From IMG/VR virus record IMGVR_UViG_2671180547_000013: a DNA stretch of 47,489 nucleotides; one strand, 5' to 3'. This DNA is from a virus (lineage: Duplodnaviria; Heunggongvirae; Uroviricota; Caudoviricetes). The notes under the pieces were generated by a model that ran no database searches, had not been told where the DNA came from, and saw only the letters and a list, made by a program, of their open reading frames with translations. This document shows, one piece after another, positions 11,705-13,882 of this stretch (position 1 is the stretch's first letter; each line of letters opens with the position of its first letter). Made by a program: the position numbers and the translations under genes.

Positions 11705-11842
11705 ACGTTACTAGATCAAAGAGCATTAGTTCATATGTAAATTGACATTTTTCTGGCACAGGGGAGAGCTAGCGTGGTTGTCCGCTTTGTGCCAATAGCG
11801 GACATTGCTGGCTCATGGTATGTTAGTTTAAGGAGGCAGGTT

Positions 11843-12865
11843 ATGCCCTGTATTTCGCTGTGGTATAATAGTTGCGCAATTGATACAAGGGAGCGTTACA
11901 TCGTGAAAATTGTTTTCGAGGTTAATGGAAAGAAAGTTCCACTAAAATCTTTAAAATACATAAGCAAAAAAGATCAACTCGAAGTAATGAAAAACTGGTT
12001 CTTTGAAAACTTTGAAGATCCGGCAAATGCTTGTCCGTATGAAAGTAGAGAAGGTGGCTATGCTTACATATATGGCGGGCCGTATGATGCGAGCGAAGAA
12101 CTACAATCCATCTTCGGTCAATATGTTAAATCTGAGTATATTGAGGAATTAGTAGATGAATTACAAACACAATGTTTTGACTGGTCTGGAAACTCAAATA
12201 ATATAGATGATTGGTACGATGATGATATCTACGACGCTGTAACGTCTTCCGGTAATCCGTATTTAAAATTCATTGATAATATCGATAAAATAAAAAAACT
12301 TGCAAAAGATAAAACTGAACAACAGCAAAAAAACCACTTGCTTAGTTTGCTCTACACGAATGTTATTACAGCTTTGGAAACGCTTTATGTTGAGCTATTC
12401 ATTAATTCTATAGAGAAAGATGATGTCTACATAGCCAATTGTATAGAAAAAGGTAAGACTGAATTTAAAGTAAGCAAAGATATTGCTGCGTTGCCTTTCA
12501 AGGGTGAACCCATCGAGAAAATTAGGGGAGAGCTAATCAGGTCAATCAAGGAACACTTGATCAGTGCAAGCTGGCATAGCACTAAAAAGGTAATCGACCG
12601 CTATGAAGCTACATTCGATATAAAAGTACAAAAAGACTGTCCGATAGAAGCTATTGAATTGGCAACCCTCAATCGAAATCACTTAGTGCATCGTGGTGGA
12701 AAGGATAAAGAAGGGAACCTCGTAGTGATTACAGACCAGGATCTTGAAACGCTGATTGAAAATGCATCGAACCTGGCAATTATGCTCTACAACAGTTTAA
12801 ATGTAGCAACGAATAAAACCACCATTTTGCAACCAGATGACAAACCGTTCATTCATGAATTTTAA
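11843..12865 (+). CDS. HEPN-like (Rx4H motif) protein, candidate abortive-infection/defence effector
   Basis: ATG 11843 with AGGAGG 6 nt upstream; low-GC gene; C-terminal helical region contains LATLNRNHLVHRGG (R-x4-H, HEPN-type motif). Domain assignment from motif only. Confidence 0.45.
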   Translation: MPCISLWYNSCAIDTRERYIVKIVFEVNGKKVPLKSLKYISKKDQLEVMKNWFFENFEDPANACPYESREGGYAYIYGGPYDASEELQSIFGQYVKSEYIEELVDELQTQCFDWSGNSNNIDDWYDDDIYDAVTSSGNPYLKFIDNIDKIKKLAKDKTEQQQKNHLLSLLYTNVITALETLYVELFINSIEKDDVYIANCIEKGKTEFKVSKDIAALPFKGEPIEKIRGELIRSIKEHLISASWHSTKKVIDRYEATFDIKVQKDCPIEAIELATLNRNHLVHRGGKDKEGNLVVITDQDLETLIENASNLAIMLYNSLNVATNKTTILQPDDKPFIHEF

Positions 12866-12880
12866 TAGCGCAGGTCATAC

Positions 12881-13882
12881 ATGGATATTCGCACACGAAA
12901 GACAAAATTTTTAGAGTCGTTAGATTCAACTGAAGTGATACGCAAAGCAGTAAGTCTCGCTATAGATTGCATTATTGATAATCATAATAGTAATGAAGAT
13001 ACCCCCTTAGTTATTACCAGCTATGATGATCTCTGTAGAATCCAGGTGCTAAATTATGTACAGGAGTTTTGCGAAGCTGCATTCCCTGATATGGATGAAT
13101 ATTACTTTAGTCCTAACATACTTCGCATCAACGGCAAGACTAGTGAAGAAGCTTGTATTAACTTAATTAAACTCTTAAGAAGTACAAAAGGCATGCTATT
13201 CTGGTCCGATGCCCCATCGTGGTTCGCTAGCCTCCCCGACGGATTATTCCATGTTGTTAACATTGATCAAAAAATCGTTACTCGCGGCCTTAATAAGAAA
13301 AACTCTAAGCCGACAATAATCAATAAAGATTACAGTGTAGATACACTACTATCAGAGCTATTTTTGAATGGCGCACACATGGAGCAACCCAACGTACACA
13401 ACGTTTCTGAGGGAAACATGAAGTTCTATGATGAATGCCATGCTGGATTAATCAGACCAATACCCGCTCCAATAGGCGCGTCATACGATGAAGAGATCAC
13501 AATTAATTCTCCAGATTGGCAAAAGCTCGCGTGTGTAGCTTTACGCCGCTATCAGTCGAAGGAATGTCATGACGGAATGCAATGGGATACAACCGATCAT
13601 GGTTGGACTGATGTAATCGCGTATCCATTCGTCGAAGAAATACAATCAATGGATAATAGTGGTTATCGACAATGTTTAGTTGGGCTGGTCACAATAAACA
13701 ATTCAAATGCAAATTCTCCGTACCTATCTACCGTTTGGATACATCCATTTTATCGCAGGAGAGGGTTATTAAGTAAGTTATGGCCAAAATTACAAGAGTT
13801 ATATGGAAGTAACTTCGAAATTGAGCGACCTAATGAAAATATGAAAGCATTTCTGAAAAGTGCGAAACACGCAGATTACTAA
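12881..13882 (+). CDS. Hypothetical protein, 333 aa, with weak GNAT-like C-terminal motif; partner of the HEPN-like gene
   Basis: Starts 16 nt after the upstream gene's stop; low GC; C-terminal LSTVWIHPFYRRRGLLSKLWPKL loosely resembles the GNAT acetyl-CoA-binding motif. Confidence 0.4.
   Translation: MDIRTRKTKFLESLDSTEVIRKAVSLAIDCIIDNHNSNEDTPLVITSYDDLCRIQVLNYVQEFCEAAFPDMDEYYFSPNILRINGKTSEEACINLIKLLRSTKGMLFWSDAPSWFASLPDGLFHVVNIDQKIVTRGLNKKNSKPTIINKDYSVDTLLSELFLNGAHMEQPNVHNVSEGNMKFYDECHAGLIRPIPAPIGASYDEEITINSPDWQKLACVALRRYQSKECHDGMQWDTTDHGWTDVIAYPFVEEIQSMDNSGYRQCLVGLVTINNSNANSPYLSTVWIHPFYRRRGLLSKLWPKLQELYGSNFEIERPNENMKAFLKSAKHADY

Follow-up and report, generated by a model that had tools for sequence, protein, structure and literature searches.

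Described Systems Closest to the Cassette

DS-33 is a two-gene anti-phage system of Escherichia coli, predicted with DefensePredictor (Science, April 2026; PMC13092281) and listed in the supplementary tables of that paper as a validated pair ("defensive TRUE") with the working name "GNAT" (Table S6). Its source was a strain of a mainly ECOR panel (contig NZ_QOWT01000046.1). Cloned with its native promoter region, it protects E. coli MG1655 (Tables S6 and S7). According to the same tables, it cuts the plating of T7, T3, Bas67 and Bas26 by 2–6 logs, with wild-type −log(EOP) values (replicates A/B) of 3.78/2.60, 3.30/2.40, 4.0/1.98 and 5.0/5.9, respectively, and values in the first screen of 3.0, 3.48, 2.30 and 4.70 in the same order. 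Defense was lost when the HEPN gene (DS-33A, gene 1) was deleted (−log(EOP) ≤ 0.54 for all phages) and in the R258A mutant (≤0.78 for all five phages). After deletion of the GNAT gene (DS-33B, gene 2) defense was intact, with 4.78/4.30 for T7, 3.30/3.30 for T3, 4.0/3.30 for Bas67 and 5.0/4.9 for Bas26. These published assays show that protection against the four phages requires gene 1, which suffices when gene 2 has been removed, and that R258 is needed. In the available main text DS-33 is not discussed by name, and the available text and tables report neither cleavage of RNA nor a target RNA, a trigger or an abortive phenotype for it. The accession numbers of the cassette were absent from the full-text literature; supplementary tables alone revealed the match.

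The locus analyzed here lies in a stretch of 47,489 nucleotides (virus record IMGVR_UViG_2671180547_000013), referred to as the window. Several other systems resemble it in part. PD-T4-2 (Vassallo et al. 2022) has, like homologues of the window protein, a HEPN domain of Pfam PF18735 (RiboL-PSP-HEPN), and in the HHblits search of the DS-33 authors PD-T4-2_B was the best remote match to DS-33A (96.1, read as a probability, over 55% of the protein; PMC13092281). Its partner is a DUF262 protein, whereas a GNAT protein is found here. In addition, PD-T4-2 came out of a selection against T4 and defends against it in the native strain, while the DS-33 rows in the available tables, which cover T7, T3, T5, Bas67 and Bas26, list no protection against T4. 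HepS of Gifsy-1 from Salmonella (PMC13043305) is, like gene 1, a single HEPN protein from a lambdoid accessory region beside the replication genes. Its defense depends on Rx4H and is exerted by the protein by itself, no partner gene being conserved; it is the best functional analogue of gene 1. ApeA (Gao et al. 2020), Tha, AbiV and DS-11 likewise join an N-terminal non-catalytic domain to a C-terminal HEPN domain in one polypeptide and, like gene 1, occur in defense islands and prophages, but their N-terminal domains and HEPN subfamilies are different ones; Pfam ApeA gave no match in the window gene 1 protein.

In the HEPN–MNT toxin–antitoxin systems (SO_3166/SO_3165; structures 5yep, 7ae2 and 8xdj), the partner has a nucleotidyltransferase fold instead of the GNAT fold found here. 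Gene 2 also differs from such a partner in being dispensable for viability and defense, and in being missing beside most HEPN homologues. GNAT proteins occur in conflict systems as well, among them the toxin–antitoxin toxins TacT, AtaT and ItaT and phage GNATs such as AcrVA5. Gene 2 is like these in its fold and as a conflict-related gene, but it carries about 190 extra, family-specific N-terminal residues, is not known to be toxic or to counter defenses, and showed no sequence match to these proteins.

Identity and Layout of the Cassette

Judged by its sequence, the cassette is DS-33. The gene 1 product is identical to published DS-33A (320/320 residues), and gene order and the 15-nt gap (published 7884 to 7900) are those of the window, which identifies the same system. 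The gene 2 product matches the tested DS-33B in 332/333 residues, with P289 in the window (WP_000354966.1), on a Rac-like prophage at ttcA, and L289 in the tested clone (WP_000354965.1) as the sole difference. The defense assays were therefore done on a P289L clone near-identical to the cassette of the window, and the window allele is P289.

A preliminary description, made from the DNA alone, had proposed a low-GC defense cassette carrying a HEPN-type Rx4H protein. The observation was real and correctly read, and the cassette was already known. Of the checks it suggested, mutation of the Rx4H motif and challenge of a native-promoter clone with coliphages have published answers, since R258A abolishes defense and T7, T3, Bas67 and Bas26 are blocked (PMC13092281, supplementary tables).

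The layout proved to be as described, with two co-oriented, closely spaced open reading frames on the + strand (Table 1). GC content of the coding block was 0.378, whereas the window averages 0.472 (sd of 2-kb windows, 0.052); no more than 1% of the 2-kb windows were equally low, all of them just downstream at 13501–15750. The flanking genes are DUF977 (11273–11704) on the 5' side and DUF1367 (15655–16254) on the 3' side, which places the cassette in the interval between replication and nin/Q-like genes, where it had been located at the outset. In K-12 Rac, ydaW is followed directly by rzpR and the cassette segment is missing, so the deletion described for that remnant was confirmed.

Table 1. 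Features of the DS-33 cassette in the window (positions of the whole stretch; domain boundaries in residues are approximate).
Feature	Position	Strand	Remark
Upstream leader of mobile block	11780..11902	+	travels with both genes into unrelated contexts
Gene 1, DS-33A, WP_014639476.1, 320 aa, putative HEPN RNase	11903..12865	+	identical to published protein
HEPN/RES N-terminal domain 1, ~aa 26–92	11978..12178	+	Pfam PF18870
HEPN domain, RiboL-PSP subfamily, ~aa 119–308	12257..12826	+	
Rx4H motif LATLNRNHLVHRGG, codons R258-N-H-L-V-H263	12674..12691	+	predicted catalytic motif of HEPN domain
Intergenic spacer	12866..12880	+	15 bp
Gene 2, DS-33B, WP_000354966.1, 333 aa	12881..13882	+	family-specific N-terminal alpha/beta region and C-terminal GNAT fold
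GNAT-fold region, ~aa 190–333	13448..13879	+	boundary approximate
Codon P289 (CCA), GNAT motif A	13745..13747	+	Leu in experimentally tested allele
Downstream tail of mobile block	13883..14020	+	homology to copies elsewhere stops at 13924–14020

Compared with copies elsewhere, the 5' edge of homology falls at 11780–11784 (Serratia, L004; metagenome, L117, L140) or at 11844 (L128/L129). The leader presumably contains the native promoter and ribosome binding site. A sigma-70 consensus scan lists no site ahead of gene 1; in the 4.5-kb stretch scanned for promoter and terminator consensus sequences the total number of sites was below shuffle expectation. Terminator-like sites were not found within the tail, the closest being at 14223 and 14259, and an Rfam scan of 9000–17000 gave no RNA family. 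The spacer keeps its length in all intact pairs, with gene 2 identities of 78–100%, except in L120 and L133, where the reading frames abut or overlap by 1 nt. In a megablast search of a phage collection, matches were confined to the initial ~100 query bases (DUF977 3' end and following spacer), so the cassette is absent from sequenced free phages at that sensitivity.

Start Site and Domains of the HEPN Protein

The start of gene 1 had been placed at the ATG at 11843. This codon and an AGGAGG at 11830–11835 are indeed present, but the GTG at 11903, giving 320 residues, is the likelier start. RefSeq/PGAP annotates WP_014639476.1 from the GTG on identical DNA, published DS-33A has the same length, and in diverged copies (L117–L119, L123 and L129) the reading frame opens exactly at the 320-residue position, so the 20-residue N-terminal extension is not conserved. 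On these three grounds the ATG was rejected as the main start.

The gene 1 protein has the all-helical bundle of the HEPN fold, and its closest structural matches include the partner-regulated HEPN toxins 8xdj, 7ae2 and 5yep. The Rx4H signature recognized in the preliminary description, in the last helix region, is upheld by this fold and by conservation: R258, H263 and R264 were invariant in 39 aligned homologues with identity down to 26%, and R-x4-H-R-x-G was present in every full-length homologue found, far above chance. PF18735 gave no match in the window protein at E ≤ 1, and its gathering cut-off of 28.4 bits was passed by homologues with 31–58% identity (P0083, 36.4; P0101, 36.1; P0061, 28.5 bits). 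For PF18870, the window protein scored 21.8 bits (E = 2.5e-4) against a gathering cut-off of 27.4 bits. Homologues reached 25–27 bits by scan, many of them being flagged PF18870 in precomputed annotation, and P0117, a PIN domain fused to the PF18870 domain, scored 28.7. The assignment of both families to gene 1 is therefore made from homologues and fold, with the window protein itself below threshold.

The N-terminal HEPN/RES domain is the best-conserved part of the protein, with invariant W32, F33, D39, P40, P45, E50, G51, G52, G58, G59 and P60. Its most conserved loop (residues 41–60) was modeled with a pLDDT of 59–64, the lowest confidence in the model. By its Pfam definition, PF18870 is also found with RES effectors. 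Conservation and fusion to other effector domains are the two observations that suggest a putative sensor or regulatory role for this domain. Since it is the best-conserved part and is common to PIN and RES effectors, it is the obvious place to search for the trigger.

Fold and Invariant Proline of the GNAT Protein

The AF2 model of gene 2 (pLDDT 89.3, pTM 0.81) showed the alpha/beta fold of GNAT proteins, without the strands that usually come after the last GNAT helix. The weak GNAT-like stretch noticed earlier was thus a true signal: the window protein scored 19.9 bits with Pfam Acetyltransf_1 (PF00583; cut-off 20.7), and the homologues P0164 (27.0 bits) and P0166 (26.2 bits) passed. The stretch corresponding to motif A, in GNAT proteins the loop for the pyrophosphate of acetyl-CoA, reads W286-I-H-P289-F-Y-R292-R-R-G295-L-L297. 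Compared with V-x-P...Q/R-x-x-G-x-G/A, the proline, the arginine and the first glycine are kept, and the final G/A is a leucine.

Within the family G295 is variable and P289 is invariant, and with the P289L change the Pfam GNAT score drops to 13.9 bits from 19.9. All 209 of the 209 complete E. coli genomes with the segment carry the 61 nt of the window at ≥99%, that is, with no mismatch; the L289 allele is therefore absent from complete E. coli genomes carrying gene 2. A search of 1.84 billion representatives with just the N-terminal region (~190 aa) gave 21 clusters, all with the same ~330-aa architecture, and this half gave no functional hint.

Distribution and Gene Neighborhoods

The full cassette was found in 205 of 5426 complete E. 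coli genomes, in at least two prophage backgrounds, and the HEPN family gave 250 matches among ~186,000 species genomes. Among 80 fetched species-level HEPN loci, gene 2 was present in 2 and absent from 76 within the DNA available, which reached as far as 8 kb in either direction; the other two (L010, L033) were too short to judge. Solitary HEPN copies include some with 75–77% identity in Aeromonas and Yersinia, the one in Yersinia having an ApeA-like gene on one side and phage portal/terminase genes on the other. Clustering of neighboring reading frames around the HEPN loci gave no other neighbor common to more than two loci. Around solitary gene 2 homologues no cluster exceeded two loci either, except for one upstream reading frame, which is shared by the related contigs L143, L144 and L154.

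Where both genes occur, they diverge in parallel (gene 1 from 100 to 85.6% identity, gene 2 from 100 to 78.4%), and the neighbor of the pair is Gabija in L127 and Eleos in L121. In both families most genes stand alone, and pairing is restricted to one enterobacterial/Aeromonas clade. On the suggested check of whether homologues co-occur in other prophages, the pair recurs in at least two E. coli prophage backgrounds and in defense contexts, and most HEPN loci are without gene 2. The pair is real, but to call it a two-gene module was an overstatement, since defense survives deletion of gene 2 and the families are mostly solitary.

Annotation resources added little. PHROGs gave only the function-less families phrog_17908 and phrog_16994, NCBIfam gave nothing, and for neither family did a profile search of PDB sequences yield a credible match. 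PADLOC-DB v2.0.0 (2023), whose models include PD-T4-2, did not detect the window proteins or nine homologues (best E 0.01–0.03, with unrelated models); DS-33 is later than the database.

The discovery value of the locus itself is small, because DS-33 was predicted, cloned and validated, and its Rx4H arginine found essential, in the April 2026 paper. What is added here is the solitary and paired distribution of the families and the rare P289L allele in the tested DS-33B. Comparative genomics accounts for the published genetics, with a widespread HEPN family whose fetched members are nearly all solitary. Gene 2 belongs to a rare family with solitary members of its own, and the allele in its sole functional test was one with a substitution at an invariant GNAT position.

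Proposed Mechanism and Alternative Explanations

The best explanation, and a highly probable one, is that DS-33 is a moron of the Rac-like prophage, with the HEPN protein as effector and gene 2 as an accessory. DS-33A would be inactive in uninfected cells until its conserved N-terminal domain detects a phage-dependent cue. A pair of HEPN domains would thereupon assemble one composite R/H active site cutting RNA (tRNA, mRNA or rRNA), and translation, and with it phage production, would halt. These steps are drawn by analogy from the behavior of HEPN domains in Csm6/Csx1, HEPN–MNT toxins, LsoA and HepS. In our view gene 2 modulates the system as an accessory and does not belong to its core; it is dispensable against the phages tested, and the accessory label derives from a deletion in a construct already carrying P289L.

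It is possible, though on the unlikely side, that two independent single-gene modules were joined once and inherited as a block, the function of gene 2 being unrelated to the HEPN protein; defense with another phage range, or another phage–host function, was envisaged for it. In keeping with such an origin, the HEPN homologues are mostly solitary, gene 2 occurs without a HEPN gene in L102, L103 and L124 (86% identical), and all homologues of ≤56% identity with enough upstream DNA to judge are without one. Gene 2 follows a P4-alpha-like primase in L103 and is followed by a PDC-S06/PrrC-like ATPase in L142, while L139, judged by N-terminal sequence only, lies beside HigBA-like genes. The occurrence of its N-terminal region in its own architecture only points the same way. 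However, gene 2 alone (HEPN gene deleted, P289L allele) gave no protection against five phages, and its DefensePredictor log-odds was 1.08 with a cut-off of 4 in the paper (PMC13092281, supplementary tables). The near-fixed spacing and the co-divergence also fit co-transcription and joint selection.

A different doubt concerns the tested allele. The natural P289 protein may have acetyltransferase activity and thereby gate or tune the HEPN RNase or widen the phage range, although we consider this unlikely. In that case the published dispensability would be an artefact, the allele tested being rare and its acetyl-CoA loop crippled, and DS-33A would be a HEPN effector under acetylation control. 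To our knowledge, such regulatory logic is without precedent among described defense systems.

Restraint by gene 2 could also take a toxin–antitoxin-like form, in which the GNAT protein holds back the HEPN RNase (e.g., by acetylation) and infection relieves it; this seems improbable. MNT antitoxins, which AMPylate HEPN toxins, provide the model, and partner-modified HEPN toxins are among the closest structural matches of gene 1 (8xdj, 7ae2, 5yep). The operon-like layout, the spacer conserved in all intact pairs but two and the parallel divergence agree with it. Deletion of gene 2 gave equal or stronger defense in both replicates (T7 +1.0/+1.7 log, Bas67 0/+1.3, T3 0/+0.9 in the published tables), and with P289L in the tested gene the restraint may be underestimated. 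Against it, the deletion strain was viable, grew lawns and defended normally (PMC13092281, supplementary tables), so gene 2 is no essential antidote. Nor is there a partner gene throughout the family, with gene 2 at 2/80 HEPN loci and the fetched homologues of ≤77% identity having neither gene 2 nor another conserved neighbor. Table S9 of the paper gives separate pTM values only and reports no interaction between the proteins. A strict toxin–antitoxin reading was rejected, given the viable, defending deletion strain and the mostly solitary HEPN genes.

Finally, it is very improbable that gene 2 serves to protect the carrier, switching off or bypassing the HEPN RNase once the prophage in residence turns lytic. 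Prophage-borne HEPN defenses do have to cope with such a conflict, Gifsy-1 evades HepS by means of a "silent" J protein (PMC13043305), and removal of gene 2 slightly raises defense in the published tables, but the pair also occurs outside recognizable prophages, beside Gabija and Eleos, and closely related HEPN genes are found in prophage-like settings without gene 2 (L006).

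Identity with DS-33 and Published Phage Data

The two-gene cassette is already published as the anti-phage system DS-33. In the supplementary tables of the DefensePredictor study, WP_014639476.1 and WP_000354965.1 form a working system, 'GNAT', which was marked defensive, replicated and named DS-33 (Science 2026, PMC13092281). DS-33A as printed there has the same sequence as the product of gene 1 in the window (HEPN gene); DS-33B differs from that of gene 2 (GNAT gene, WP_000354966.1) in one residue. Both accession numbers are absent from the main text of any paper and appear in supplementary tables only, and the main text of PMC13092281 does not discuss DS-33 by name. 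The feature is real and was correctly interpreted in the preliminary description, which had proposed a defence module.

Plating data are given as −log(EOP), the last column of Table S7 (EOP, efficiency of plating). Deletion of the HEPN gene reduced the values to ≤0.54 on every phage, and R258A, the motif mutation that had been proposed as a check, to ≤0.78 (PMC13092281).

Published −log(EOP) of DS-33 (PMC13092281); mutant set as two replicates
Phage	First screen	Wild type	GNAT gene deleted
T7	3.0	3.78/2.60	4.78/4.30
T3	3.48	3.30/2.40	3.30/3.30
Bas67	2.30	4.0/1.98	4.0/3.30
Bas26	4.70	5.0/5.9	5.0/4.9
T5		0.77/0.08	1.73/0.55

DefensePredictor log-odds were 9.45 for DS-33A and 1.08 for DS-33B, with a cut-off of 4, and the authors' remote-homology search for DS-33A led to PD-T4-2_B, a RiboL-PSP-HEPN protein (PMC13092281). 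In PD-T4-2, unlike DS-33, the HEPN partner is a DUF262 protein.

Start, Domains and Motif of Gene 1

The ATG at 11843 with a preceding AGGAGG, initially assigned as the start of gene 1, exists. As the start actually used, GTG 11903 is likelier, since PGAP places it there on identical DNA, the open frame of diverged copies begins exactly at the equivalent position, and the published DS-33A is the 320-aa form (PMC13092281).

Against Pfam, the protein gave only a sub-threshold match to HEPN/RES N-terminal domain 1 (PF18870, E 2.5e-4), together with a faint one to 'predicted pPIWI-associating nuclease' (E 0.51). A word-indexed protein search returned 122 relatives, several of which, at 31-58% identity, score above the cut-off that Pfam sets for RiboL-PSP-HEPN (PF18735) and match PF18870 just under the cut-off (25-27 bits). 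The Rx4H signature noticed earlier proved to be real: R258-x4-H263-R264-x-G was found in all full-length relatives and is invariant in a 39-sequence alignment down to 26% identity. The best-conserved part of the protein is the N-terminal domain, with eleven invariant residues from W32 to P60. In one relative (P0117, 407 aa), a PIN_8 nuclease carries HEPN/RES N-terminal domain 1 at its C-terminus; this putative sensor domain therefore occurs at the least with HEPN as well as PIN effectors and, going by its Pfam name, also with RES effectors. Sensor and regulatory domains of conflict systems typically show such modularity, and the N-terminal domain would fit that pattern.

Gene 2 and the P289L Difference

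The weak GNAT-like stretch reported for gene 2 is sub-threshold in the window protein (19.9 bits, Pfam cut-off 20.7) and reaches significance in homologues, at 27.0 and 26.2 bits. The N-terminal ~190 residues are family-specific: as a query of their own against 1.84 billion representative proteins, they returned only 21 clusters, and all full-length matches share the same ~330-aa architecture. The family is small, with 66 clusters at 90% identity.

The sole difference between the tested DS-33B (L289) and gene 2 of the window (P289) lies at the counterpart of a conserved proline in GNAT motif A. P289 is invariant in all family members with a readable motif, P289L lowers the Pfam GNAT score by 6 bits (to 13.9), and the 61-nt window stretch at this codon has zero mismatches in 209/209 complete E. 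coli genomes with the segment. Therefore, the published 'wild type' probably carried an impaired gene 2.

Pairing and Solitary Occurrence

The HEPN family is widespread, with 250 confirmed matches across many phyla in a one-genome-per-species collection. Among the best 80 of these loci, gene 2 lies downstream in two, the closest ones (98-100% identity), and is absent within up to 8 kb per side from 76, the remaining two (~1 kb) being too short to tell; the copies from Aeromonas and Yersinia, at 75-77% identity, stand alone. When every neighbouring ORF in the 78 loci with no gene 2 was clustered, no partner was common to more than two loci. Relatives of gene 2 at ≥78% identity usually have the HEPN gene directly ahead, with exceptions at 86% identity (L102, L103 and L124), while none at ≤56% identity with enough upstream DNA has it. 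Beyond near-identical contig pairs, their neighbours had nothing in common except one upstream ORF in three related contigs. Given these solitary relatives, each gene can exist alone. That the cassette represents two independent modules is doubtful.

Intact copies of the paired clade have a 15-bp spacer with two exceptions, divergence runs in parallel (gene 1 from 100 to 85.6%, gene 2 from 100 to 78.4%), and the mobile block extends across contexts from about 11780/11844 to 13956/14020. From these comparisons, the pair looks like the result of a single joining event, inherited as a unit since.

Proposed Mechanism and Possible Role of Gene 2

In the published tables, gene 1 and R258 are needed for defence and gene 1 suffices without gene 2 (PMC13092281), which matches the comparative picture of the HEPN protein as a self-contained effector that does not require gene 2. 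The published wild type probably carried an impaired gene 2 (P289L), and deletion of this gene still left defence equal or somewhat stronger. On these grounds, a modulating role of gene 2 is conceivable, if unlikely. For the self-contained effector, further steps are drawn from general HEPN biology: in cells without infection DS-33A would stay inactive, a phage-dependent cue would be detected by its N-terminal domain, and the HEPN domains would dimerise to form the R258/H263 site, cutting RNA and halting translation. The closest functional analogue is HepS, a solo HEPN protein in the equivalent region of Salmonella prophage Gifsy-1 (PMC13043305). Since the feature is already known, the remaining interest is limited to the roles of gene 2 and of the gene 1 N-terminal domain.

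Prophage Setting and Genomic Contexts

In E. coli FORC_081, the identical DNA lies at ttcA and its genes follow the order of Rac: intR, recET, kilR, sieB, a repressor/cro pair, ydaT, ydaU, a dnaC-like gene, DUF1627 and DUF977. The low-GC, co-oriented cassette described after the replication genes was confirmed by its ORFs and GC content (0.361 and 0.391 for genes 1 and 2; window 0.472, replication genes on the left 0.494). Equally low GC occurs in only 1% of 2-kb windows, all in the tract directly right of the cassette. In agreement with the preliminary description, the segment is missing from K-12 Rac, where ydaW runs directly into rzpR.

Features of the window
Feature	Position	Strand	Remark
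Rac-type integrase ORF	1-1236	minus	window start
Masked run	10237-10486		250 N; breaks the dnaC-like and DUF1627-like ORFs in the replication module
DUF977 gene	11273-11704		left of cassette
Gene 1 (likelier start)	11903-12865	plus	
Gene 2	12881-13882	plus	
Low-GC tract beyond cassette	13883-15650		
DUF1971 gene	14503-14865	minus	Pfam E 2.6e-26
Very AT-rich stretch	15001-15500		GC 0.28; ahead of DUF1367 gene
High-GC regions	38501-42500; 45001-46000		GC 0.57-0.63, markedly above rest of prophage

Around the masked run, translations contain X runs and GC profiles are distorted. Beyond the cassette, the low-GC tract has the look of another, separate moron; E. coli S88 has hokD after the cassette instead.

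Co-occurrence in other prophages was checked, and the pair was found in no fewer than two types of E. coli prophage (a Rac-like one at ttcA, a DicB/Qin-like one in S88) and in 205/5426 complete E. coli genomes. The contexts of the pair and of solitary homologues are typical of defence genes. On metagenomic contigs, the pair directly adjoins Gabija (GajA E 8.6e-205, GajB 6.8e-123) or Eleos (LeoA, LeoBC); one solitary gene 2 homologue sits after a P4-alpha-like primase, and a second is followed by a PDC-S06/PrrC-like ATPase. In Yersinia alsatica (L006:6338-7699, minus), a solitary HEPN homologue (75% identical) is flanked by an ApeA-like gene (ApeA_NTD1, E 2.2e-8) on one side and by phage portal/terminase genes on the other. 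This places two distinct HEPN defence genes side by side, apparently in a prophage hotspot of the P2 type.

In a cyanobacterial MAG (L076:6050-8604) and Achromobacter mucicolens (L082:6452-8885), the gene for a PIWI protein matching the PADLOC model of class I pAgo (L076, E 1.2e-166) is followed after 23-39 bp by a solitary HEPN homologue, which suggests that the HEPN family also serves as a pAgo-associated effector.

Three or four E. coli copies of the cassette are plasmid-borne (e.g., NZ_CP082081.1, 149,988 bp; NZ_CP073936.1), and in strain MB56 an ISSen4 insertion splits it. Degenerate metagenomic copies have the HEPN gene frameshifted (L114) or truncated (L090), or gene 2 truncated (L131). 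The query matched 902 E. coli records, only about 215 with a best place ≥95% identical and roughly 690 at 80-95%. Besides the genomes with the full cassette, these records thus include about 700 with partial matches at 80-95% identity, which we take to be the end of the DUF977 gene and the following spacer; if so, this junction would be a common insertion point, with other cargo in most prophages.
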